Positions 20,251 through 46,581 of a DNA stretch of 64,000 nucleotides are shown here, piece after piece. How positions within the stretch are numbered: position 1 is the first letter of the stretch; every line of letters begins with the position of its first letter. Below the pieces are notes generated by a model. The model was not told the DNA's origin, searched no databases, and was given only the letters and a program-made list of their open reading frames with translations. The DNA is taken from NCBI RefSeq assembly GCF_024223415.1, contig NZ_CP100503.1; one strand, 5' to 3'. This DNA comes from Escherichia coli. Lineage in GTDB: Bacteria; Pseudomonadota; Gammaproteobacteria; Enterobacterales; Enterobacteriaceae. A program made the position numbers and the translations under genes.

Positions 20251-21444
20251 GTGACCTGGGACGATCACAAGAAGAATTTTGCTCGCCTGGCGCGAGATGG
20301 TGGTTACACCATCGCACAGTATGCCGCCGAGTTTAATCTTAACCCTAATACTGCACGTCGTTATCTCCGTGCCTTCAAAGAAGACACCAGGACAGCGGAC
20401 AGCCGCAAGCCAAATAAGCCAGTCAGGAAGCCACTAAAAAGCATGATCATTGATCACTCTAATGATCAACATGCAGGTGATCACATTGCGGCTGAAATAG
20501 CGGAAAAACAAAGGGTTAATGCCGTTGTCAGTGCCGCAGTCGAGAACGCGAAGCGCCAGAATAAGCGCATAAATGATCGTTCTGATGATCATGACGTGAT
20601 CACCCGCGCCCACCGGACCTTACGTGATCGCCTGGAACGCGACACCCTGGATGATGATGGTGAACGCTTTGAATTCGAAGCTGGCGATTACCTGATAGAT
20701 AACGTTGAAGCGCGGAAGGCCGCTCGCGCTATGTTGCGTCGGTCCGGGGCTGATGTTCTGGAAACCACTCTTCTGGAAAAGTCTCTCTCTCATCTCCTTA
20801 TGCTGGAGAACGCCAGGGATACGTGTATTCGCCTGGTGCAGGAAATGCGCGATCAGCAAAAAGACGATGATGAAGGGACTCCGCCTGAATATCGTATCGC
20901 GAGCATGCTAAACAGCTGTTCCGCGCAGATAAGCAGCCTGATCAACACCATTTACAGCATCCGGAATAACTATCGAAAAGAAAGCCGGGAGGCGGAAAAG
21001 CACGCTTTATCTATGGGGCAAGCTGGCATTGTTAAGCTGGCATACGAACGAAAGCGTGAAAATAACTGGTCAGTGCTGGAAGCAGCTGAATTCATCGAGG
21101 CGCATGGCGGAAAAGTGCCGCCCCTGATGCTGGAGCAAATCAAAGCCGATCTGCGTGCTCCTAAGACCAATACCGATGATGAGGAAAACCAAACAGCATC
21201 TGGCGCTCCATCACTTGAAGATCTGGATAAAATCGCGCGAGAACGGGCCGCCAGCCGCCGCGCTGATGCCGCATTGTGGATTGAGCATCGTAGAGAAGAA
21301 ATTGCCGATATCGTCGATACAGGTGGTTATGGTGATGTCGATGCGGAAGGCATATCAAACGAAGCATGGCTTGAACAGGATCTGGACGAAGACGAGGAGG
21401 AAGACGAAGAAGTTACCCGCAAACTGTACGGGGATGATGATTAA
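20251..21444 (+). CDS. pacA: Pacase (terminase) small subunit PacA
   Basis: 397 aa; GTG start; contains the pac site within its coding sequence. Confidence 0.8.
20444..20602 (+). other. pac: pac packaging site: 4 + 3 TGATC(A/G) hexamers flanking the cleavage region
   Basis: TGATCA at 20444, 20451, 20463, 20478; TGATCG/TGATCA at 20574, 20586, 20597; each carries a GATC Dam site. Confidence 0.8.
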
Positions 21445-22928
21445 TGGCCAGAAGTTGCGTAACGGACCCACGTTGGCGCGAGCTTGTGGCGCTATATCGT
21501 TATGACTGGATTGCGGCCGCTGATGTGTTGTTTGGGAAGACACCAACCTGGCAGCAGGATGAGATCATTGAGTCCACGCAGCAGGACGGCAGTTGGACAA
21601 GTGTGACCTCCGGCCATGGTACTGGTAAGTCGGATATGACGAGTATCATTGCAATACTCTTCATCATGTTTTTCCCCGGCGCTCGCGTTATTCTGGTCGC
21701 TAACAAAAGACAGCAAGTCCTTGATGGTATTTTCAAATACATAAAGAGCAATTGGGCTACTGCTGTTAGCAGATTCCCGTGGTTGTCGAAGTATTTCATT
21801 CTTACAGAAACGTCTTTTTTTGAGGTGACTGGCAAGGGTGTTTGGACAATATTGATAAAGTCCTGTCGCCCCGGGAATGAGGAGGCGTTGGCTGGTGAAC
21901 ACGCCGATCATCTCTTGTATATCATCGACGAAGCGTCGGGTGTGAGTGATAAAGCATTCAGTGTGATAACAGGTGCGCTGACCGGTAAGGATAACCGTAT
22001 TCTGCTTCTTTCCCAGCCTACGCGACCTTCAGGCTATTTCTACGATTCACACCACAGACTAGCTATTCGCCCGGGAAATCCTGATGGATTGTTTACTGCG
22101 ATAATACTGAATAGTGAAGAATCTCCGCTTGTAGATGCAAAATTTATACGAGCAAAACTTGCGGAGTATGGCGGTCGTGATAACCCCATGTACATGATCA
22201 AAGTACGTGGTGAATTTCCCAAATCTCAAGATGGCTTTCTTCTTGGTCGTGATGAGGTTGAGCGGGCGACGCGGCGAAAGGTCAAGATTGCCAAAGGATG
22301 GGGCTGGGTTGCATGTGTTGACGTTGCTGGTGGCACAGGACGAGATAAGTCCGTTATTAATATCATGATGGTGTCCGGCCAGCGAAATAAACGCCGTGTA
22401 ATCAACTATCGTATGCTGGAATACACAGACGTTACAGAAACGCAGTTAGCCGCCAAGATTTTCGCAGAATGTAACCCAGAACGGTTCCCGAACATAACCA
22501 TAGCTATTGATGGCGATGGCTTGGGGAAATCGACGGCTGATCTAATGTACGAACGCTATGGCATTACCGTCCAGCGTATCCGCTGGGGTAAAAAGATGCA
22601 CAGCCGTGAAGATAAGAGCCTGTACTTTGATAAGCGTGCTTATGCCAACGTTCAAGCCGCAGAGGCCGTAAAATCTGGTCGTATGAGACTGGATAAGGGT
22701 AATGAAACTATTGAGGAAGCGTCGAAAATCCCTGTAGGGATTAACTCCGCAGGTCAATGGAAGGTGATGAGTAAGGAGGATATGAAGAAAAAACTCAACC
22801 TGCACTCACCAGACCATTGGGATACATATTGTTTCGCTATGCTGGCTGATTATGTTCCCCAGGATGAAGTGCTTAGCGTCGAAGACGAAGCGCAGGTTGA
22901 TGAAGCTCTTGCATGGCTTAACGAATAA
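21444..22928 (+). CDS. pacB: Pacase (terminase) large subunit PacB
   Basis: 494 aa; start overlaps pacA stop; ATPase/nuclease-type terminase architecture. Confidence 0.85.
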
Positions 22929-22931
22929 ATA

Positions 22932-22948
22932 TTTGCTCTAATAAATTG
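22932..22948 (+). promoter_or_regulatory. C1 operator of immI-like module A
   Basis: TTTGCTCTAATAAATTG, 4 bp after the pacB stop. Confidence 0.55.
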
Positions 22949-22959
22949 TGTTTTTTGAC

Positions 22960-23100
22960 TGCCGATGTTACATTGAACCTGACCTCTTGCGCCTTGAGGC
23001 TTTTTCGGTTTATGCTTATCAGGCACCTCATTAAAACGGGTGCCGGGATTGGCCTCCCGCTTAAGTCTAAGGCGATACAGACGCCGCTCGCGTCTTTTTT
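22960..23100 (+). ncRNA. c4: Putative c4-like antisense RNA leader of module A
   Basis: Non-coding leader between operator and icd; ends at weak hairpin GACGC-N-GCGTC plus T6 (23080-23100); contains GTCTAAGG element repeated at the icd RBS. Confidence 0.3.
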
Positions 23101-23265
23101 GTATCGGCGTACACGCACACCTCTACAATGGTGGGCTGTATGGGGCTACCTTCGGGTAGGCTGGTTACCTTGGACGCCAGTAAGGCCAACTCCGTACAGT
23201 CCACCGCCAGCAAGATTGGTCTCTTCTGCGGTGGTTACATACCAACGTCTAAGGAGGCTGCCAAT

Positions 23266-23487
23266 ATGGCTACTATCCCTACCCCAACTCATCCTGAATT
23301 TATCTGGCGCTTTTACTCCTGCCAAAAACGTCACTATCACTTCGTTATTGCACCAACAGAAGATGAGGCCCGCTCTCAGCTTCCTGACGCCCCATGTATT
23401 TTCTCTGCCCGTTTTTCCACTGATTCACGCAATTCTCTCAGTTACTGGTGCCTCCCTGTTAACGCTTCTGCTCAGGAGGGACTATGA
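23266..23487 (+). CDS. icd: Icd-like small protein
   Basis: 74 aa from ATG at 23266 with AAGGAGG RBS; shares EFIWRFYSCQKRHYHFVIAPTEDEARSQLPDAPCIFSARF with copies B and C; stop overlaps ant start (ATGA). Confidence 0.6.
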   Translation: MATIPTPTHPEFIWRFYSCQKRHYHFVIAPTEDEARSQLPDAPCIFSARFSTDSRNSLSYWCLPVNASAQEGL

Positions 23488-24599
23488 GAACGTCATTAGT
23501 CACCCGTGAAGAGATGATCGAGGCAATTGAACAGCACACTGCCTGTATCAGTACCAGGGATATACCGGGCGTTATTGCCAACTACTTCATGATCACCAAA
23601 CAACTTTACCGGAGAAAGGACAAGAACGCGGTTCACCGCATTCTGCTAACCGATATCCGCGAATACCTGCTCGAACAGGGTCATCTGAATTACGCAACCG
23701 TCGCAGCCGAAACACGCAAGGAGGCACACAGAATGAAAGCAACTAACGTTAAATCAGAAAAAATTCATGCAACTTCAGTTCAGGAATCAGAGCTGGTGGT
23801 TGTTCAGAATCAGTCTGATGAAATTCCCGTTCTGGAATGGCTGGGAGTGCGTGTAGTGACAACCAAGATCCTTGCTAAGGGGTATGGGACCGATGCGGAT
23901 AACATCAAGAAGAACTTTTCCCGTAATGCTGAACGTTTTTGTGAAGGCAAGCATTTCTATAAAGTTATTGGAGATGATTTGAACAATTTGCGGGTGACTT
24001 TAAGTAACTCACAAAATCCCATCTCTCCTAAAGCCCGTTCACTCATCCTCTGGACAGAACGCGGCGCTGCCCGTCACGCTAAAATGCTCGAAACCGATCA
24101 GGCATGGGCATTCTTTGAAAAACTGGAAGACAGCTACTTCCGGCAAAAAGAACAGCAACCGGTTGCAATCCCCCAAACATTACCAGAAGCCCTACGCCTG
24201 GCTGCCGAACTGGCTGAACAAAAGCAGCTTCTGGAACAGAAAGCCCACCAGCTAAATCAGCAGCTGGTGGCCGCCGCTCCTAAGGTCGATTTTGCCGACC
24301 GGGTATCAGTAGCTAAAGGGATCCTGATTGGGAATTTTGCAAAGGTTGTTGGACTTAAGCAAAACGCGCTGTTTGCCTGGTTACGGGAGAACGGCATCCT
24401 GATAGCGTCCGGTGGACGTAAAAATGTGCCGTTCCAGCAGTACATCAACGCGGGGTATTTCACGGTGAAAGAAGTGGTGCTGGATGATGAAGATGGCTAC
24501 CAGATACGGTTGACGCCTCAATTAACGGGTAAAGGCCAGCAGTGGTTGACGCGTAAACTGCTCGATGCTGGCTTGTTAAAACCGGTGGCGGCTGAATAA
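23484..24599 (+). CDS. ant: Antirepressor Ant paralog A (KilA-C C-terminal domain)
   Basis: 371 aa; translationally coupled to icd; C-terminal domain shared with KilA (43795-44595) and other Ant copies. Confidence 0.7.
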   Translation: MRTSLVTREEMIEAIEQHTACISTRDIPGVIANYFMITKQLYRRKDKNAVHRILLTDIREYLLEQGHLNYATVAAETRKEAHRMKATNVKSEKIHATSVQESELVVVQNQSDEIPVLEWLGVRVVTTKILAKGYGTDADNIKKNFSRNAERFCEGKHFYKVIGDDLNNLRVTLSNSQNPISPKARSLILWTERGAARHAKMLETDQAWAFFEKLEDSYFRQKEQQPVAIPQTLPEALRLAAELAEQKQLLEQKAHQLNQQLVAAAPKVDFADRVSVAKGILIGNFAKVVGLKQNALFAWLRENGILIASGGRKNVPFQQYINAGYFTVKEVVLDDEDGYQIRLTPQLTGKGQQWLTRKLLDAGLLKPVAAE

Positions 24600-26456: not shown

Positions 26457-26759
26457 ATGAAGATTATTTCGGTAAAAACATTGAGGGATTTTTGGTCTGT
26501 GAATCCCGATGCAGAACAACCATTAAAGGCCTGGGTTGACGAAGTCTCCAAGGCCACCTGGAAAAGCCCGGCTGATATCAAAGCGCAGTACCGATCTGCC
26601 AGCATTCTTAAAAACAGGCGGGTTGTCTTCAACATCAAAGGTAATGACTACAGATTAATTGTTGCAATTGCTTATCAGCGAGGATGGATGTTCGTTAAGT
26701 TTATTGGAACACATAAGGAATACGATGCCATCGACGCGGATACAATAGAGCTGGAGTAA
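26457..26759 (+). CDS. higB: HigB-family type II toxin (RelE/ParE superfamily mRNA interferase)
   Basis: 100 aa; C-terminal THKEYD motif and toxin-first gene order. Confidence 0.7.
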   Translation: MKIISVKTLRDFWSVNPDAEQPLKAWVDEVSKATWKSPADIKAQYRSASILKNRRVVFNIKGNDYRLIVAIAYQRGWMFVKFIGTHKEYDAIDADTIELE

Positions 26760-26762
26760 ATC

Positions 26763-27122
26763 ATGAACATTAAACCTATCCGTACAGAACAAGATTATCA
26801 GGCCGCACTACGCGCGGTCGAACCTATGTTCGATAACGAACCGGAAATGAACACCCCGGAAGGTGATTTCTTTGAGATAATGTGCCTGCTTATTGAAGAG
26901 TATGAAAAAAGACATTACCCAATTGAACCGCCTACACCCATTGAAGCGATTAAGTTCCGTATGGAACAGCAAGGGTTGACAGTGAAAGATCTGGAACCGG
27001 CGATTGGTAAGTCGAACCGTGTTTACGAAGTTCTGAATGGAACGCGAAATTTAACGTTACCAATGATTAGGCGTTTGCACGTACAGTTTGGCATTCCTCT
27101 CGAAAGTCTGGTTGGTGTGTGA
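26763..27122 (+). CDS. higA: HigA-family antitoxin (XRE-type HTH)
   Basis: 119 aa; C-terminal HTH (GKSNRVYEVLNGTRNLTLPMIRRL) resembling E. coli HigA. Confidence 0.7.
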   Translation: MNIKPIRTEQDYQAALRAVEPMFDNEPEMNTPEGDFFEIMCLLIEEYEKRHYPIEPPTPIEAIKFRMEQQGLTVKDLEPAIGKSNRVYEVLNGTRNLTLPMIRRLHVQFGIPLESLVGV

Positions 27123-27128
27123 CTTAAA

Positions 27129-28181
27129 ATGTCTAATGTCCTGACCGTACACCAAAATTTGCCTGCATTACCGGTCGATGCAACGAGTGATGAGGTTCGC
27201 AAGAACCTGATGGACATGTTCAGGGATCGCCAGGCGTTTTCTGAGCATACCTGGAAAATGCTTCTGTCCGTTTGCCGGTCGTGGGCGGCATGGTGCAAGT
27301 TGAATAACCGGAAATGGTTTCCCGCAGAACCTGAAGATGTTCGCGATTATCTTCTATATCTTCAGGCGCGCGGTCTGGCAGTAAAAACTATCCAGCAACA
27401 TTTGGGCCAGCTAAACATGCTTCATCGTCGGTCCGGGCTGCCACGACCAAGTGACAGCAATGCTGTTTCACTGGTTATGCGGCGGATCCGAAAAGAAAAC
27501 GTTGATGCCGGTGAACGTGCAAAACAGGCTCTAGCGTTCGAACGCACTGATTTCGACCAGGTTCGTTCACTCATGGAAAATAGCGATCGCTGCCAGGATA
27601 TACGTAATCTGGCATTTCTGGGGATTGCTTATAACACCCTGTTACGTATAGCCGAAATTGCCAGGATCAGGGTTAAAGATATCTCACGTACTGACGGTGG
27701 GAGAATGTTAATCCATATTGGCAGAACGAAAACGCTGGTTAGCACCGCAGGTGTAGAGAAGGCACTTAGCCTGGGGGTAACTAAACTGGTTGAGCGATGG
27801 ATTTCTGTCTCTGGTGTAGCTGATGATCCGAATAACTACCTGTTTTGCCGCGTCAGAAAAAATGGTGTTGCCGCGCCATCACCCACCAGCCAGCTATCAA
27901 CTCGCGCCCTGGAAGGGATTTTTGAAGCAACTCACCGATTGATTTACGGGGCTAAGGATGACTCTGGCCAGAGGTACCTGGCCTGGTCTGGACACAGTGC
28001 CCGTGTCGGAGCCGCGCGAGATATGGCCCGCGCCGGAGTTTCAATACCGGAGATCATGCAAGCTGGTGGCTGGACCAACGTAAATATTGTCATGAACTAT
28101 ATCCGTAACCTGGATAGTGAAACAGGGGCAATGGTGCGCCTGCTGGAAGTTGACATCCTCCCCCACCTTCGCACTTCGTGA
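27129..28181 (+). CDS. cre: Cre tyrosine recombinase with altered C-terminus
   Basis: 350 aa; matches P1 Cre as I recall it up to ...MVRLLE, then VDILPHLRTS encoded by IS end instead of DGD. Confidence 0.9.
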   Translation: MSNVLTVHQNLPALPVDATSDEVRKNLMDMFRDRQAFSEHTWKMLLSVCRSWAAWCKLNNRKWFPAEPEDVRDYLLYLQARGLAVKTIQQHLGQLNMLHRRSGLPRPSDSNAVSLVMRRIRKENVDAGERAKQALAFERTDFDQVRSLMENSDRCQDIRNLAFLGIAYNTLLRIAEIARIRVKDISRTDGGRMLIHIGRTKTLVSTAGVEKALSLGVTKLVERWISVSGVADDPNNYLFCRVRKNGVAAPSPTSQLSTRALEGIFEATHRLIYGAKDDSGQRYLAWSGHSARVGAARDMARAGVSIPEIMQAGGWTNVNIVMNYIRNLDSETGAMVRLLEVDILPHLRTS

Positions 28182-28200
28182 CTCAGGAGGGGGATTCCCA

Positions 28201-29433
28201 TTAGTGGGTGACGGCTGATTGCTCAGCGTCTGGTTCCTGCTTCAACGGGCGGTCTGACTGCACCGTCCCTCCACAGGCAAGTACGGCGTGCCCCGCCGCT
28301 AAAATGTTGCGAGCGCCGTTTACATCGGCGTTCGCTGTATATCCACAAGCCCGACACACGAATTTACTTTGTGTCAGGCGGTTTTCTTTCGCTGTATGAC
28401 CACAGCACGCGCAACGCTGGCTTGTGTACGCTGGCGGAACAGCAAGCACCTGACCACCACGCCAGAGCTGCTTGTACTCAAGCTGGCGGCGCATTTCATA
28501 CCAGCCCTGATCCAGTATCGAACGGTTTAAACCTGATTTTGCCCGGACATTGCGCCCCGGCTGGCTGACCGTACCCGCTGCTGACTTTGACATGTTGCTG
28601 ACCTTCAAATCCTCAATGACTATCATTGCGTGGTTTTTGCTGACGGTCGTTGTGACTTTGTGAAGGTAGTCCCTGCGGATATTTGCAATACGGGAATGCA
28701 GTTGCTGTATTTTGCGTTTCTGCTTCTGCCAGTTGTTGCTGAATTTGACCCTGCGGCTTAACTGTCGCTGAAGTCTCGCCAGCTTCTTCTGGTTTTTCTG
28801 AAAACTGTTTACAGGTTCAAAGACTGTGCCATCTGACAGCGTGGCGAGTTTAGCCACGCCAGCATCCAGACCGACTATCGTTGTGCTTGTGTGATTTGGT
28901 TCTGCCGTTTCAATTTCAACCTGAAACGAGATATACCACTGTCCCGCTAACTGACTGATTGTCGCATTTTTGATTTTACCGTTCACACGTTGAGATTGCC
29001 GGAATTTTACCCACCCAAGACCTGACGGTAGCTTCACTCTGCGATTTTCAAGGCAGCAATATTTCTCAAAGTTCACAAAACGGATTGAGTCTCTGCCCTC
29101 ATTTTTTCGTTTCCATACCGGAGCCTTAGCTGCGAGCTTTTTATCAAAACAACGTTTCCATGCGGTATGCAGGTCTTTCAGCTTTTGTTGCAGATTGTCG
29201 GTATAAGCATCCTGTAAGAAGATATATTCCGGCATTTTTTTCCACACTGTAATCATCCGGTTCAACTCGAAAGCCGAAGGTAACTTTTCGCCTGAGCCAA
29301 GTACGCGCTTTGTCTCCGCAAGACCTAAATTCCAGACAAAACGGGCGCAACCACATAACTGCCGCAAACGCTGCGACTGTTCATGCGTTGGTTCCAGTCT
29401 GAATTTGTAGGCTTTCAGGATTAGCATCATCAT
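28201..29433 (-). CDS. tnpB: TnpB (OrfB-family RNA-guided nuclease-like protein)
   Basis: 410 aa; C-terminal RuvC-like and zinc-finger region ([13 protein letters not shown]...[18 protein letters not shown]). Confidence 0.85.
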
Positions 29434-29485
29434 TCAGTGTGTAGTAGATTTTCTTGCAATATTACTGTTTTTACGGCCAACCTCA

Positions 29486-29890
29486 ATGCAAAAATACAAA
29501 ATCAATCGTTCAAGACATGCTGCCTTCCTTTTGCATGTTCATCTTGTCTTTGTAACAAAATACCGTCGAAAGATACTGGGAGAGTTACACTGTGCAGCAT
29601 TCCATCAGTATGCAGCAGAAGTCTGCCGTGACTTTGGGGCAGAACTTAAAGAAAGTAACGGAGATGTCGATCATGTCCACATGCTGATCGAATACCCACC
29701 AACAGTGCAGCTTTCGGTACTGGTTAACTCACTGAAAGCAGTGACATCCCGCCGTCTGCGAAACGAATTTCTTGATTTGCGGGGGGCATACGGAAAAGCC
29801 GTGCTCTGGTCGAGGTCATACTTTGCTGGCTCCTGCGGAGGTGCGCCGCTGGAAGTTGTGAAGCAATATATTCAACATCAGCGAGGCTGA
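29486..29890 (+). CDS. tnpA: IS200-type Y1 (HUH) transposase TnpA
   Basis: 134 aa; HVHLVF, HuH motif DHVHMLI, catalytic Tyr region WSRSYFAGS. Confidence 0.85.
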   Translation: MQKYKINRSRHAAFLLHVHLVFVTKYRRKILGELHCAAFHQYAAEVCRDFGAELKESNGDVDHVHMLIEYPPTVQLSVLVNSLKAVTSRRLRNEFLDLRGAYGKAVLWSRSYFAGSCGGAPLEVVKQYIQHQRG

Positions 29891-29995
29891 GCACCCTTCG
29901 GGCTTTTCAAGCCCGTCCAAATTCCCCTGCCGCCTTATGTCGGCGGGAGTACCCTTTGGAAGTTAAGATGGCGATTAGCCATTAACGCGTAAATG

Positions 29996-30554: not shown

Positions 30555-30578
30555 GGCGGCCGAAAGGCCGCCTTTTTT
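30555..30578 (+). terminator. Rho-independent terminator
   Basis: GGCGGCC-GAAA-GGCCGCC followed by TTTTTT. Confidence 0.65.
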
Positions 30579-30580
30579 AA

Positions 30581-31645
30581 TCATTCAGCCGCCACAGGTT
30601 TTAACAAGCCAGCATCGAGCAGTTTACGCGTCAACCACTGCTGGCCTTTCCCCGTTAATTGGGGCGTCAGCCGTATCTGGTAGCCCTCTTCATCATCCAG
30701 CACCACTTCTTTCACTGTGAAATATCCGGCGTTTATGTACTGCTGGAACGGTACATTTTTACGTCCACCGGACGCTATCAGGATGCCGTTCTCCCGTAAC
30801 CAGGCAAACAGCGCGTTTTGCTTAAGTCCAACAACCTTTGCAAAATTCCCAATCAGGATTCCATTAGCCACTGATACCCGGTCGGCAAAATCGACTTTAG
30901 GAGCGGCGGCCACCAGCTGCTGATTTAGCTGGTGGGCTTTCTGTTCCAGAAGTTGCTTTTGTTCAGCCAACTCGGCAGCCAGGCGGAGGGCTTCGGGGAG
31001 TGTCTGGGGGATCGCTGGAGAAGCAGCGCTAACCTGCTGCAACTCCTCCAGCTTGTCGATCAACGAACGGCGGACCGCTTTTGACTCGCGCGCGGCAACT
31101 CGCAGGGCTTGTTTGTAGGTCATGGTTATGACCTCAAAAGAGCGCCCAGCCCTTGTGCCATGGGATTTTACGAAAGTTTCGTAAAATTCCCCATCAAGTT
31201 CATCCTTAATTCTATTGAGAAAATCGTTATTGCGGATCTCATTTTCCCCACATAGCTTGCGCGCCTCATTGACCATCTTTAACAGTGTCTGGCTGTCGAT
31301 TGTGTCGCCCGTACTGGGGATAACATCCATGGCTGGTAGTGGTGTGGATTCTATCAAAGGCTTTGTAACGACAACATCTGGTTTGCTTGCTTTCATTCTG
31401 TGTGCCTCCTTGCGTGCTTCGGCGGTTACGGTTGCATAATCAAGACGACCCTGTTCGAGCAGGTATTCACGGATATCAGTTAGCAGAATGCGGTGAACCG
31501 CGTTCTTGTCCTTTCTCCGGTAAAGTTGTTTGGTGATCATGAAGTAGTTGGCTATAACACCAGGAATGTCCCTGGCGCTGATACAGATTGTGTGCTGTTC
31601 AATAGCCTCGATCATTTCTTCACGGGTAACTAATGACGTTCTCAT
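30581..31645 (-). CDS. ant: Antirepressor Ant paralog B (KilA-C C-terminal domain)
   Basis: 354 aa; N- and C-terminal regions near-identical to Ant A/C, central region resembles Ant D. Confidence 0.7.
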   Translation of the reverse strand: MRTSLVTREEMIEAIEQHTICISARDIPGVIANYFMITKQLYRRKDKNAVHRILLTDIREYLLEQGRLDYATVTAEARKEAHRMKASKPDVVVTKPLIESTPLPAMDVIPSTGDTIDSQTLLKMVNEARKLCGENEIRNNDFLNRIKDELDGEFYETFVKSHGTRAGRSFEVITMTYKQALRVAARESKAVRRSLIDKLEELQQVSAASPAIPQTLPEALRLAAELAEQKQLLEQKAHQLNQQLVAAAPKVDFADRVSVANGILIGNFAKVVGLKQNALFAWLRENGILIASGGRKNVPFQQYINAGYFTVKEVVLDDEEGYQIRLTPQLTGKGQQWLTRKLLDAGLLKPVAAE

Positions 31646-31863
31646 AGCCCCTCCTGAGCAGAAGCGTTAACAGGGAGGCACCAGTAACTGAGAGAGTTGC
31701 GCGAGTCAGTAGAAAAGCGTGCAGAGAAAATGCAGGGAGCGTCAGGAAGCTGAGAACGGGCCTCATCTTCTGTTGGTGCAATGACGAAGTGATAGTGACG
31801 TTTTTGACAAGAATAGAAGCGCCAGATAAATTCCGGGCGTGCGCAAGGATTGGCATTAACCAT
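31642..31863 (-). CDS. icd: Icd-like small protein
   Basis: 73 aa; identical to Icd copy C; overlaps ant B start. Confidence 0.6.
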   Translation of the reverse strand: MVNANPCARPEFIWRFYSCQKRHYHFVIAPTEDEARSQLPDAPCIFSARFSTDSRNSLSYWCLPVNASAQEGL

Positions 31864-32023
31864 AGTTACGGCCTCACAAGTTGAATTAACAACCTGCTAC
31901 CCGCTGTCAAACAGGTGGCAGGACGTGACAGGGTTGACAGACTGGCACTTGTGAAACCAGCAGGCCGAAGCCTCCCCATCACGCCCCACCATAATTCGGG
32001 CGTAACGCGGTTTTACGGACACA

Positions 32024-32170
32024 AAAATACCGCAATAACGGAGTGATGCGGTTGTCCGCACAAGTATTCAGGCTGTCAAACCCGGTCGCAGAATTTGCTA
32101 CGACGCAGGAACTATAAGCCTGAACGACGGGAAGATCAATAGTCTGGCGTCCAATAGTAGTTTATTTGTT
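32024..32170 (-). ncRNA. c4: Putative c4-like antisense RNA of module B
   Basis: Colinear (no indels) with the module C leader; GGTTTGACAGCC element at 32071-32082 (rc). Confidence 0.3.
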
Positions 32171-32181
32171 CCAATAAATCA

Positions 32182-32197
32182 AATTTATTAGAGCAAT
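32182..32197 (-). promoter_or_regulatory. C1 operator of immI-like module B
   Basis: AATTTATTAGAGCAAT on plus strand. Confidence 0.6.
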
Positions 32198-32428
32198 ACA
32201 ATCTGGTTGAATGTTTCCTCTCCGAGGTTGCAATGTGCACACTTATTGTTTTATTTGTATGCACTAATAAATATATTATTTTTAATAATAAATAATTGAC
32301 AACTGACAAGTGACTTCAGTCAGAATCATCACACGCCCGGTACGGATGGATCCCTTTTCAAATATTCCATGGACGGCACAGTCTGAGTACCGGGCGCTAC
32401 CTTCAGTTGTATTGCTAAGCCGCCGCTG

Positions 32429-33097
32429 GTGGCTTTTCTTTTTTGTAGGGGCGCTATGGATAAGAAAATATGCGTTGTTTCAATGTGCGTCGGCAAACCG
32501 GCGTCAATGACTGCTGCATGGATCAACAATGAGCTGATCATGGCTGAGCGGACCAGCTACCCTGAACGCCGCCGCGATATGGAACTCCAGCTGCTGCGCG
32601 AATTGCGAGAAAAAGAGGAAAAGGGTTTTATCGTGCTGGTGGAAGAGGAAAACAGCTTTATTACCGGTCGAGTTGGCCAGCGTGTAAGGTTGCGTGATCC
32701 CTTCATGAACGGCAGACCGGTACTGATTGAAGCAATGCAGATTTACAAGGAATTGGAACGCCAGAAAGCGATCAAGTTACCGCGCAAGGAATCCGGCAAA
32801 TACATCCTTCACCAAAGCATCTTCGATTCCGAACACGATAAAAAAGGCGATGAATTTTTCAACATCAACTGGAGCGAAATAACGACAGAGCACGTTCTGA
32901 CGTTGTTATGCTGCTTCGCAACGGAATATAACAACGTTGCAAGCGCCGACTACATCAGGGCAATGGCTGGAGAAGTTGAGGCACGCCAGGAACCATCGTT
33001 ACTAAGCCCTCTGATTAACATAATTCGCGGCACACAGAGACTTGCGGAAAAAAGCGTTCCACACGGAATCTTAACTGGGAAGGGAAACTATTTTTAA
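32429..33097 (+). CDS. Hypothetical protein
   Basis: 222 aa from GTG; ATG at 32456 (MDKKIC) may be the true start. Confidence 0.4.
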   Translation: MAFLFCRGAMDKKICVVSMCVGKPASMTAAWINNELIMAERTSYPERRRDMELQLLRELREKEEKGFIVLVEEENSFITGRVGQRVRLRDPFMNGRPVLIEAMQIYKELERQKAIKLPRKESGKYILHQSIFDSEHDKKGDEFFNINWSEITTEHVLTLLCCFATEYNNVASADYIRAMAGEVEARQEPSLLSPLINIIRGTQRLAEKSVPHGILTGKGNYF

Positions 33098-33130
33098 CAT
33101 CCCCAAATCCTTTTGGGGAACAACTCATTC

Positions 33131-33448
33131 TTACAATAGCTGCCCCATACATTGTCTCCAGGCACTCCCCTCATTACCGTTATCAAGAAACGTAGAGGTT
33201 GCATAAGGAATGCCTCTGATTTGTGTTGATGTGAATGGACCATCAGACGTCGAAGTTGTGCGCAGTTTTGATGTAAACTCGTAATTTCCACTGATGCCTT
33301 TCTCTGCCAGAGCTTTTGATTTTGTGATAACTAAATCTGCACATTTCTCTGCGGCTACATATTGCGGGTCTTTTTCAGCTTTTCCGGCACATGCAGTTAT
33401 CGTTAAAACGATAGCTGCGGCTAACAAATTACCTAGTTTCATCTGCAT
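33131..33448 (-). CDS. Putative lipoprotein
   Basis: Signal peptide with lipobox LTITAC; likely start MKLGNLL at 33442. Confidence 0.5.
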   Translation of the reverse strand: MQMKLGNLLAAAIVLTITACAGKAEKDPQYVAAEKCADLVITKSKALAEKGISGNYEFTSKLRTTSTSDGPFTSTQIRGIPYATSTFLDNGNEGSAWRQCMGQLL

Positions 33449-33547
33449 ACCTTATTAAGTGCATTAAAAACAGTAGGTTGCCAAGGTTTTAAACAAATTT
33501 CAATCCTCCATGACGCTCAATATGAGCAAAAATAACACACAAACATC

Positions 33548-33564
33548 ATTGCTCTAATAAATTT
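33548..33564 (+). promoter_or_regulatory. C1 operator of immI-like module C
   Basis: ATTGCTCTAATAAATTT, perfect consensus. Confidence 0.65.
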
Positions 33565-33574
33565 GATTTTTTAG

Positions 33575-33721
33575 GGCAAATAAACTACCATTGCGCACTG
33601 CCCTATTGATCTCCTTACCGTTCAGGCTTATATTCATGCCGTCGTAGCAAATTCTGCGACCGGGTTTAGCAGCCTGAATACTTACGCGGACAACCGCAGA
33701 TATCCGATATTGCGGTATTTT
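33575..33721 (+). ncRNA. c4: Putative c4-like antisense RNA of module C
   Basis: Leader with GGTTTAGCAGCC (33663-33674) and hairpin ACCGCAGA-N-TGCGGT plus ATTTTC (33693-33721); complementary element CTGCTAACC at 33805-33813. Confidence 0.3.
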
Positions 33722-33881
33722 CATGTCCGTATAACCGCGTTACGCCCGAATTATGGTGGGGCGTGATGGGGAGGCTTCGGCCTGCTGGTTTCGTAAGTGC
33801 CAGTCTGCTAACCCCGTCACGTCCTGCCACCTGTTTAGCAGCGGGTCGCAGGTTGTTTTATCAACTTACGAGGCCGTAACT

Positions 33882-34103
33882 ATGGTTAATGCCAATCCTT
33901 GCGCACGCCCTGAATTTATCTGGCGCTTTTACTCCTGCCAAAAACGTCACTATCACTTCGTTATTGCACCAACAGAAGATGAGGCCCGCTCTCAGCTTCC
34001 TGACGCCCCATGTATTTTCTCTGCCCGCTTTTCCACTGATTCGCGCAACTCTCTCAGTTACTGGTGCCTCCCTGTTAACGCTTCTGCTCAGGAGGGACTA
34101 TGA
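33882..34103 (+). CDS. icd: Icd-like small protein
   Basis: 73 aa from ATG at 33882; stop overlaps ant C start. Confidence 0.6.
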   Translation: MVNANPCARPEFIWRFYSCQKRHYHFVIAPTEDEARSQLPDAPCIFSARFSTDSRNSLSYWCLPVNASAQEGL

Positions 34104-35212
34104 GAACATCGTTAGTTACCCGTGAAGAGATGATCGAGGCAATTGAACAGCACACTGCCTGTATCAGTACCAGGGATATACCGGGCGTTATTGCCAACTA
34201 CTTCATGATCACCAAACAACTTTACCGGAGAAAGGACAAAAACGCGGTTCACCGCATTCTGCTAACCGATATCCGTGAATACCTGCTCGAACAGGGTCAT
34301 CTGAATTACGCAACCGTCGCAGCCGAAGCACGCAAGGAGGCACACAGAATGAAAGCAACTAACGTTAAATCAGAAAAAATTTATGCACCTTCAGTTCAGG
34401 AATCGGAACTGGTGGTTGTTCAGAATCAGCCGGATGAAATTCCCGTTCTGGAATGGCAGGGAGTACGTGTCGTGACAACCGAAACTCTTGCTAGAGGGTA
34501 TGGGACCGAAACTAATAACATCAAAGTTAACTATACGCGTAATGCTGATCGCTTTGAGGAAGGTAAACATTACTTTCTACTAACTGGTTCAAAATTAAAA
34601 GAATTGAAGGACAAGGTTACTCAAAGTAACTTAGTCGCACCGCGAGCAAAGCACCTCACTCTCTGGACGGAACGCGGCGCAGCCCGCCACGCTAAAATGC
34701 TCGAAACCGATCAGGCATGGGCATTCTTTGAAAAACTGGAAGACAGCTACTTCCGACAAAAAGAACAGCAACCGATCGCAATCCCCCAGACGCTTCCTGA
34801 AGCTCTGCGCCTGGCTGCCGAACTGGCTGAACAAAAGCAACTTCTGGAACAGAAAGCCCACCAGCTAAATCAGCAGCTGGTGGCCGCAGCCCCTAAAGTC
34901 GAGTTTGCCGACCGGGTATCAGTGGCCAAGGGGATCCTGATTGGGAATTTTGCAAAGGTTGTTGGACTTAAGCAAAACGCGCTGTTTGCCTGGTTACGGG
35001 AGAACGGCATCCTGATAGCGTCCGGTGGACGTAAAAATGTGCCGTTCCAGCAATACATCAACGCCGGGTATTTCACGGTGAAAGAAGTGGTGCTGGATGA
35101 TGAAGATGGCTACCAGATACGGTTGACGCCCCAGCTAACTGGGAAAGGCCAGCAGTGGTTGACGCGTAAACTGCTCGATGCTGGCTTGTTAAAACCGGTG
35201 GCGGCTGAATAA
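34100..35212 (+). CDS. ant: Antirepressor Ant paralog C (KilA-C C-terminal domain)
   Basis: 370 aa; closest to Ant A throughout. Confidence 0.7.
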   Translation: MRTSLVTREEMIEAIEQHTACISTRDIPGVIANYFMITKQLYRRKDKNAVHRILLTDIREYLLEQGHLNYATVAAEARKEAHRMKATNVKSEKIYAPSVQESELVVVQNQPDEIPVLEWQGVRVVTTETLARGYGTETNNIKVNYTRNADRFEEGKHYFLLTGSKLKELKDKVTQSNLVAPRAKHLTLWTERGAARHAKMLETDQAWAFFEKLEDSYFRQKEQQPIAIPQTLPEALRLAAELAEQKQLLEQKAHQLNQQLVAAAPKVEFADRVSVAKGILIGNFAKVVGLKQNALFAWLRENGILIASGGRKNVPFQQYINAGYFTVKEVVLDDEDGYQIRLTPQLTGKGQQWLTRKLLDAGLLKPVAAE

Positions 35213-35219
35213 TGGAAGA

Positions 35220-35245
35220 ATGCCCGGTTGATGCCGGGCAAAAGG
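35220..35245 (+). terminator. Hairpin after ant C (same as at 24607)
   Basis: ATGCCCGG-TTGATG-CCGGGCA. Confidence 0.5.
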
Positions 35246-45766: not shown

Positions 45767-45948
45767 TACAATCGTTACGGGTGCTTGAGGCTATCTGCTT
45801 CAGGCATTACCCGAAAAGCAGATAGAAGAAAGCCCCAGATAACATTACGCGTCCTGCAAGACGCTTAACATTAATCTGAGGCCATCTCTATGCTTAGCAT
45901 ACGTAGATTAACCCTCTCCCCTTTTAAGGAGCAAGGAATTTTTTACTG

Positions 45949-46581
45949 CTATGCCGCATTTCCAATTATGGATTCAGCGACCAGAACAACCCCATGCTTA
46001 CTTCGATCTGGGTGTTCACTCCATATCTCGGATTCAGGAATACTTACCCCGTCATAGCAAACACGTTCGCCGTCAAACGGGTAATACTGAGCGGCATCGG
46101 TGTCAAGGATAAACACTTTTAGCTCGGAAGAGCGACGGGCGATGTGTTGCCAAAGAGCTTTTCCACCTTCGTATTGCTCATTATCACTGAGCAAAACAAC
46201 ACCAGCTTTTGAGGCTACGGTTTCGTAAACAAAAGTAGCTAAACCGACATCCCGGACGGTTCCATCAACCACGATACCTTCAATCTGGGCAACATCGCTA
46301 TCCTCCCAGAACTTCCTTACCAGTACGCCTTCAAGCTGCGGGCGACGTTGAAGTTCAAGAGTAGCGACAACCTTATGGCGCATATCACCATCGATAATAG
46401 AAGGCGCAGCCTCTATTACAGCTGCAAATGGGGTTTTGGAATCCCATATAACCTGGTAAAGCACACCCTGGATGGTAACTCCGTCCAGGATCGAAAATCG
46501 ACGAGCGACAGTACCCGGGGAGTACGACATTGGAATCACAGCCATTTTAGAGTCCCCCTTTAACAGTACAGGCACAAACAT
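45949..46581 (-). CDS. Hypothetical protein
   Basis: 210 aa ORF. Confidence 0.4.
   Translation of the reverse strand: MFVPVLLKGDSKMAVIPMSYSPGTVARRFSILDGVTIQGVLYQVIWDSKTPFAAVIEAAPSIIDGDMRHKVVATLELQRRPQLEGVLVRKFWEDSDVAQIEGIVVDGTVRDVGLATFVYETVASKAGVVLLSDNEQYEGGKALWQHIARRSSELKVFILDTDAAQYYPFDGERVCYDGVSIPESEIWSEHPDRSKHGVVLVAESIIGNAA

Follow-up and report, generated by a model that had tools for sequence, protein, structure and literature searches.

Differently keyed immI-like modules on one P1-like phage-plasmid of Escherichia coli

The c4 antisense RNA blocks expression of the antirepressor gene ant, and the immI region underlies heteroimmunity between phages P1 and P7 (PMC8198154, PMC12197685, PMC6906374). 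We analysed a stretch of 64,000 nucleotides from E. coli contig NZ_CP100503.1 (the window), whose source is a P1-like phage-plasmid encoding Cre (27129-28181), C1 (24632-25483, minus strand), the PacA/PacB terminase (20251-22928) and further P1 genes. A preliminary description of this DNA reported two inverted immI-like modules (c4-icd-ant), here called B (30581-32197, minus strand) and C (33548-35212, plus strand), and this arrangement was borne out. The locus raises the question of whether one replicon can carry two immI immunity types that do not recognise each other. The comparisons presented below support two heteroimmune specificities, as judged from the recognition sequences. In our view B and C are likely to be complete copies of P1 immI under independent regulation, each with its own key and target, and neither would silence operons of a type other than its own.

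Organization and recognition alleles of modules B and C

Modules B and C aligned base for base over 811 nt, from 33548/32197 to approximately 34358/31387, so that the leaders are colinear without insertions or deletions, as had been described; a position in B equals 65745 minus the corresponding position in C. These inverted arms (31387-32197 and 33548-34358) were 90% identical. A further pair of arms (30570-31015 and 34778-35223; 446 nt, 93%) covered the 3' ends of both ant genes. The features of the two modules were as follows.

Module C
33548-33564, plus: C1 operator, a perfect match to ATTGCTCTAATAAATTT; aligns with P1 Oc4/Op51
33606-33634, plus: sigma-70 promoter-like site TTGATC-17-TATATT, at the position of the P1 promoter P1c4 (P51b)
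33666-33686, plus: leader targets a1 TTAGCAG (33666-33672) and b1 ACTTACG (33680-33686); Rfam c4-a1b1 match at 33628-33680
33693-33721, plus: hairpin in the leader with a T run behind it (ACCGCA...TGCGGTATTTT), read from the sequence; counterpart of the IsrK terminator
33755-33831, plus: c4 antisense RNA, 77 nt, with b' CGTAAGT (33792-33798) in a 9-nt loop and a' CTGCTAA (33805-33811) in a 7-nt junction
33835-33873, plus: mRNA targets a2 TTAGCAG (33835-33841) and b2 ACTTACG (33864-33870); b2 overlaps the icd Shine-Dalgarno GAGG (33870-33873)
33882-34103, plus: icd, 73 aa (PHROG 1426, E = 7e-47); its stop overlaps the ant start (ATGA)
34100-35212, plus: ant, 370 aa (Ant1; PHROG 63, anti-repressor Ant, E = 9e-135); an internal start at 34349 behind AAGGAGG is the Ant2 equivalent

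Module B
32181-32197, minus: C1 operator, perfect match
32111-32139, minus: promoter-like site TTGATC-17-TATAGT, likewise aligned with P1c4
32059-32079, minus: leader targets a1 TTGACAG (32073-32079) and b1 ACTTGTG (32059-32065); Rfam c4-a1b1 match at 32065-32117
31914-31990, minus: c4 antisense RNA, 77 nt, with b' CACAAGT (31947-31953) in the hairpin loop and a' CTGTCAA (31934-31940) in the junction
31875-31910, minus: mRNA targets a2 TTGACAG (31904-31910) and b2 ACTTGTG (31875-31881), the latter beside the icd Shine-Dalgarno
31642-31863, minus: icd, 73 aa, with an ATGA overlap with ant
30581-31645, minus: ant, 354 aa (PHROG 63, E = 4e-114)

At the level of sequence, both modules had a one-operon layout, with c4, icd and ant under a C1 operator and a promoter-like site, and a terminator scan of the coding strand gave no terminator-like site between c4 and ant in either module. 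C1 operator-like sites with at most two mismatches numbered eight in the window, against 0.01 expected by chance. Matches to the Rfam C4 family (RF01695; gathering score 45) scored 70.8 bits at 33749-33834 (plus) and 68.6 bits at 31911-31996 (minus), and the c4-a1b1 family (RF03163; gathering score 46.7) scored 56.8 and 54.6 bits in the two modules. In each module b2 abutted GAGG, 8 nt ahead of the icd ATG; the ATGA overlap suggests that ant is translationally coupled to icd. Both ant genes also had an in-frame ATG at codon 84 behind AAGGAGG, resembling the P1 ant2 start.

The GenBank records of P1 and P7 annotate a1, b1, c4, a2 and b2 at positions that align base for base with the window, which allowed each recognition element to be assigned to an allele:

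a of B (the P1 allele): TTGACAG (a1, a2); CTGTCAA (a')
a of C (the P7 allele): TTAGCAG (a1, a2); CTGCTAA (a')
b of P1: GTTAGTG (b1, b2); CACTAAC (b')
b of P7: GATTGTG (b1, b2); CACAATC (b')
b of B: ACTTGTG (b1, b2); CACAAGT (b')
b of C: ACTTACG (b1, b2); CGTAAGT (b')

The preliminary description had listed six short elements, three in each module, related by a GAC/AGC exchange that preserved their complementarity, and had likened the pattern to P1 versus P7. The sequences and coordinates of all six were correct. Alignment to P1 and P7 identified its elements 1, 2 and 3 as the annotated a1, a' (within c4) and a2, and the exchange between B and C is the very polymorphism that separates P1 from P7. 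Its inventory was right for the a set; absent from it were the b1/b'/b2 set and two modules, both described below: the third of the window (module A) and the canonical one that the nearest relative carries as its fourth. The b alleles of B and C match neither P1 nor P7. In both modules a2 and b2, downstream of c4, were exact 7-nt complements of a' and b'. The transcribed leaders (33641-33881 in C) differed at 25 of 241 nt, and 12 of these differences were accounted for by two-base swaps at a1, a', a2, b1, b' and b2. One more difference within c4, at 33815, changes a closing-stem G-C pair to G-U. Modules B and C thus differ by two bases in a' and two in b', the same number as P1 and P7, which are heteroimmune through immI (PMC6906374, PMC12197685).

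The c4 RNAs of modules A, B and C and of P1 and P7 shared one predicted minimum-energy shape (z from -4.3 to -5.2). It is closed by a long stem and contains a UUCG hairpin, another hairpin that presents b' in its 9-nt loop, and a 7-nt junction that holds a'. Predicted energies were -45.7 kcal/mol for C (z = -5.2) and -42.8 kcal/mol for B (z = -4.4). The swapped bases lie at c4 positions 39-40 and 54-55 and are all unpaired in this predicted fold, as fits pairing with a target in trans, for which the bases must be exposed. It had been expected that the substitutions would fall in paired regions of a conserved structure; they would do so in pairing with the targets in trans, whereas within the c4 fold the same bases are unpaired, and the expectation should therefore be read as one of intermolecular pairing. 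When duplex energies were calculated for c4/target combinations in a 5 x 5 matrix, the cognate pair was the most stable in each row and column.

Covariation of the recognition elements and proposed mechanism

We surveyed related modules by an exact-match scan of IMG/VR with a conserved 25-nt piece of c4, which returned 118 P1-type modules. In these modules a occurred as two alleles and b as at least seven, and 11 of the 12 possible combinations of the two a alleles with the six common b alleles were found. Among complete modules, 114 of 115 had a1 identical to a2 and complementary to a', and likewise b1 identical to b2 and complementary to b'. More distant modules with the same c4 core included a third a allele (TTAGTCG/CGACTAA, in our locus L011) and the seventh b allele (GTTCAAG/CTTGAAC, in L014).

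Covariation was measured on an alignment of 41 distinct related leaders, separately for c4 with its targets and for c4 with the leader copies:

Cells paired, observed: 97.9% for c4:a2/b2; 99.8% for c4:a1/b1
Cells paired, column shuffles: 79% for c4:a2/b2; 80% for c4:a1/b1
Cells paired, partner slid by 1-3 columns: 27-51% for c4:a2/b2; 23-37% for c4:a1/b1
Cells changed on both sides: 137 for c4:a2/b2; 144 for c4:a1/b1
Cells changed on one side only: 0 for c4:a2/b2; 0 for c4:a1/b1

None of 500 shuffles attained the observed percentage paired, number of both-side changes or covariation score. This covariation across the population excludes a chance origin of the compensatory pattern, which is, in these alignments, the signature of discrete, selected specificity alleles. 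The P1 GenBank record labels a1 and b1 "putative"; to our knowledge, their covariation is the first population-level argument for a function of these elements.

The sole mismatched module (L039; IMG/VR 2565956613_000015) had b' CATTCGT and b2 GTTAGTG. Its contig and a sister contig of that isolate (L038, of type P7a/P1b) terminate at an identical base. We take the module as a probable assembly chimera and not as a natural escape mutant; alternatively, it may be regulated by the c4 of the other copy.

According to work on P1 and P7, including that of the Schuster laboratory, c4 is processed from the operon leader, pairs with a2 and b2, and blocks translation of icd and hence expression of ant. 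By extension from these phages, the 77-nt c4 of each copy would be excised from the leader of the transcript that carries it, and maturation by RNase P is plausible because c4 matches P1 exactly at its ends and in its flanks. On transcripts of the same kind, loop b' would then pair with b2 and junction a' with a2, covering the icd ribosome-binding site; as ant appears to be coupled to icd, no antirepressor would be made and repression by C1 would hold. Specificity would reside in the two short helices, a and b, and the operons silenced by a given c4 are predicted to be its own and incoming ones of that type, and no others.

The preliminary description had anticipated that two specificities could broaden protection against superinfecting relatives. 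This is one side of the expected consequence, and escape from the c4 of a resident prophage is the other. As a prophage, the replicon would make several c4 keys and would keep repression when relatives of any of those types superinfect. As an invader, it would bring in several ant operons, and a resident would have to match all of them to stay repressed. The replicon probably recognises several immunity types at once, and it may escape them.

The a1/b1 copies in the leader probably also bind c4, and a short leader RNA that stops at a terminator perhaps presents them as a decoy. As a1 and b1 covary as strictly as the targets and the IsrK leader acts in trans, a type-specific decoy role is plausible. 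By analogy with IsrK, the hairpin at 33693-33721 in C is a possible 3' end of such an RNA (PMC4825925); it was absent from the output of the terminator scan because its loop is longer than 8 nt.

Additional modules and competing explanations

A third immI-like module, A, was found in the window at 22932-24599 (plus), between pacB and c1:

22932-22948, plus: C1 operator, 2 mismatches
23023-23100, plus: isrK-type leader (Rfam isrK, RF01394, 60.8 bits, gathering score 50), with a1 TTGGCCT (23049-23055) and b1 GTCTAAGG (23065-23072)
23130-23205, plus: c4, with b' CCTTGGAC and a' AGGCCAA; Rfam C4 match at 23124-23211, 75.9 bits
plus: targets a2 TTGGTCT (23216-23222) and b2 GTCTAAGG (23247-23254)
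23266-23487, plus: icd, 73 codons, with an ATGA overlap with ant
23484-24599, plus: ant, with an in-frame start at codon 84 behind a strong Shine-Dalgarno sequence, resembling P1 ant2

The key of module A is a third, unrelated a/b pair, two of its pairs being G-U. Only A carries an isrK-type leader; B and C match c4-a1b1 instead. A scan of IMG/VR for A-type c4 gave 31 copies with identical a' and b' throughout, a range of alleles that the exact-match pattern may have limited. The Ant proteins of A, B and C all belong to PHROG 63. Their central third is P1-like in B (31020-31395) and of an alternative antirepressor type in C (34350-34770) and A, so that, besides their RNA control, the targets of the proteins may differ too.

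Module B lies between a cra-like gene and mat, and C between a lipoprotein gene and a Ulx-like gene. The segment between the divergent modules (32456-33448) contains:

32456-33097, plus: mat (maturation control protein)
33131-33448, minus: small lipoprotein-like open reading frame (ORF)

None of A, B and C occupies the canonical P1 immI position, from the sim genes to kilA-repL. The nearest public record is plasmid pMTY1886_untypable_1 of E. coli TUM1886 (pMTY1886; NZ_CP128972.1 = AP026456.1, 97,409 bp), with 99.6% identity across 30581-35212. It holds four modules in total, including a canonical immI of P1a/P1b type adjoining kilA-repL (NZ_CP128972.1 75577-76950; 27578-29000 of our L122), a position outside the window. 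The window replicon holds at least three differently keyed modules, and probably four. The arrangement B-mat-C recurred in one IMG/VR contig and in four independent complete plasmids, which come from human, bovine and porcine strains of Japan and the USA; a divergent pair around mat occurred in 4 of 848 P1-positive complete E. coli genomes, and one of these four, with a bovine O111:H11 plasmid, matched the window in the types of both B and C.

In PLSDB we found 675 P1-type c4 copies on 570 plasmids. An even sample of 60 records comprised 47 with one copy, 12 with two and one with three, and among IMG/VR contigs of at least 80 kb, 8 of 26 carried two to five modules when the A type was counted. 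Approximately 20-30% of P1-like replicons thus have two or more modules. Additional modules recurred at four sites (sim-kilA, cra|mat, mat-lipoprotein|ulx-like and pacB|c1), and no strict link between c4 type and insertion site was found in the survey. In 13 isolate genomes with at least two P1-type modules, the same (a, b) type occurred in none of 29 co-resident pairs, compared with 3.6 expected under permutation (P = 0.018); ten pairs shared only a and two shared only b. A per-contig version with 16-19 pairs gave a back-of-envelope P of about 0.07-0.11 from type frequencies. The distinctness of types among co-resident modules is suggestive only.

These data invite a broader proposal, in which the a and b alleles form a combinatorial two-helix code (two alleles for a and at least seven for b, with the isrK type in addition) that requires both helices, replicons have been selected to gather up to four or five orthogonal modules as weapons in an arms race, and the a1/b1 decoy titrates c4 and triggers release of the antirepressor. 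We offer this tentatively and give it somewhat less than an even chance. If it is true, each extra c4 would widen the immunity of a resident, and each extra ant operon would break residents that have no matching key.

Several observations weigh against the reading of B and C as independently keyed copies. In pMTY1886 the two modules share b and differ only at a. In the crude energy calculation, the duplex of C c4 on the B target (-17.2) is close to the cognate values (-19.6 to -20.0); a similar value was obtained for P7 c4 on the P1 target (-16.1), a pair that is reported to be heteroimmune. Multiple modules are not required, as approximately 70-80% of P1-like replicons have a single one, and one contig (L148; IMG/VR 2698536372_000019) carries a tandem duplicate of the A-type module, in which the leaders are identical, the specificity is the same and 1566 bp separate the two copies, both lying on one strand. 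Draft assemblies collapse identical repeats, which biases the co-residence comparison toward distinct types. Finally, for the window modules we infer processing, orthogonality and an effect on immunity from their sequences.

Duplex energies were also considered as a discriminator of cognate and non-cognate pairs. They did not separate the a side cleanly and were kept as a rank check only. The reason is a second TAGCAG in the a2-b2 spacer of B (31885-31900), P1 and P7, which is able to pair with a P7-type a'; the spacer of C (33842-33856) reads TCGCAG.

The modules might function while their multiplicity is neutral, several per replicon being leftovers of recombination at a few hot spots, with types that differ by donor. 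Types are indeed not bound to sites, as modules of the C type are present beside mat and also at the canonical sim-kilA site, and these positions were described by Venturini et al. as variable regions common to P1-like plasmids (PMC6906374). The minority of replicons with two or more modules, the rarity of the divergent pair around mat and the existence of the identical A-type tandem fit this explanation as well. It is harder to reconcile with the lack of identical pairs in the 29 within-genome comparisons, or with the intact operator, promoter, c4, icd and ant of every module. Module B of pMTY1886 (21276-21620 of our L001) also speaks against it: compared with B of the window, its b1, b' and b2 and its spacer are of C type and its a1, a' and a2 of P1 type, a mosaic that would need at least three crossovers and would still form a coherent lock-and-key set, which points to selection on each module. 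We regard neutral mosaicism as possible but less likely than not.

A second explanation is that one matching helix, a or b, suffices, so that the array would be a partly redundant network and not a set of independent locks. Sharing of one allele among co-resident modules is compatible with this, as described above for 12 of the 29 pairs, and in pMTY1886 module B has b in common with C and a in common with the canonical module D. The second TAGCAG in the target spacer of B, P1 and P7 would offer a further route to cross-talk. For the pair in the window it does not apply, however, since B and C differ at both helices, as P1 and P7 likewise do. Moreover, the alleles of a and b reassort with few restrictions, and three-way complementarity is maintained at each of the two helices, as would be expected if both contribute. 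Such cross-talk appears rather unlikely as an account of the array.

Decay of one module into a dead duplicate, or an assembly error that created the inverted pair, is contradicted by the data and highly improbable, as no support for either was found (L039, the one mismatched module among those surveyed, is at the end of its contig and looks like a chimera), the ORFs of both modules are full-length, their operators perfect and their elements matched, their Rfam C4 scores exceed the gathering score by more than 20 bits, and the same arrangement recurs in the four independent plasmids and the IMG/VR contig.

Relation to known systems and neighbouring features

The closest comparison for two separately keyed immI copies is P1/P7 immI itself. 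The order of parts is the same (C1 operator, promoter, a1, b1, c4, a2, b2, icd, ant), as is the fold of c4, and the 77-nt c4 RNAs of B and C are identical to it outside the recognition bases and one stem position. Modules B and C differ from P1/P7 immI in flanking mat near cre, and not lying between sim and kilA-repL; in their number, with three modules in the window and four in pMTY1886 compared with one; in the central Ant domain of C; and in their b alleles.

Module A resembles the isrK-orf45-anrP locus of Gifsy-1 in Salmonella, as it has an isrK leader directly upstream of c4, a short upstream ORF coupled (AUGA) to the antirepressor, and a leader RNA complementary to a downstream structured segment. 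In the homologous Gifsy-1 operon, the short leader RNA (IsrK) activates in trans via translational coupling, and the SeqA RNA of P4 has been called a structural homolog of IsrK (PMC4825925). The published Gifsy-1 mechanism is thus trans activation by a short leader RNA, and not repression by a processed c4. No AntQ partner was evident in the window.

Two further phage systems show parallels. In P4 and phiR73, the CI RNA is processed from the leader of its operon, its seqB pairs with seqA and seqC upstream and downstream, and heteroimmune relatives show compensatory changes; P4 CI acts by premature termination of transcription of the replication genes, not by a translational block of icd-ant, and is not known to be related in sequence. 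The immI of P22 is a second immunity region in which the sar antisense RNA limits synthesis of Ant, although sar is transcribed from the strand opposite the ant leader (cis-antisense), is not known to have an a/b loop code or icd, and belongs to an unrelated family.

For the res-mod region of pSvP1, Venturini et al. reported "homologs of P1 icd-ant1/2", and for pTZ20_1P and RCS47 an ant between pacB and c1 (PMC6906374); a second c4-icd is on record for a D6-like plasmid (PMC6799933). In the full-text papers searched we found such annotation-level notes of extra icd-ant or c4-icd only, and neither typing of c4 specificities nor replicons with multiple specificities, although an earlier description may exist. 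The mechanism is known; what is new is the two b alleles, three (probably four) differently keyed modules per replicon, and a combinatorial allele system in the population.

Heteroimmunity of P1 and P7 is a classic case of antisense-RNA specificity determined by a few bases, and their natural relatives hold far more specificities, with three or four on one replicon. P1-like plasmids occur in approximately 16% of complete E. coli genomes, and many carry resistance genes. If the keys are orthogonal, the array of a plasmid would predict which P1-like plasmids coexist, induce or exclude each other, and the allele set could serve as a panel of short orthogonal RNA regulators for synthetic biology.

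Other features of the window were observed near these modules and beyond them. An IS200/IS605-type element of about 1.8 kb (28150-29964; tnpB 28201-29433, minus; tnpA 29486-29890, plus) sits in the last codons of cre, and owing to this insertion the Cre tail ...LLEDGD of pMTY1886 reads ...LLEVDILPHLRTS in the window. A sok antitoxin RNA at 45779-45953 (Rfam match, 91.4 bits) indicates an addiction module of the hok/sok type. Directly upstream of cre, at 26457-27122, two small ORFs matched a HigB-family toxin and a transcriptional regulator, which are annotated likewise in pMTY1886.

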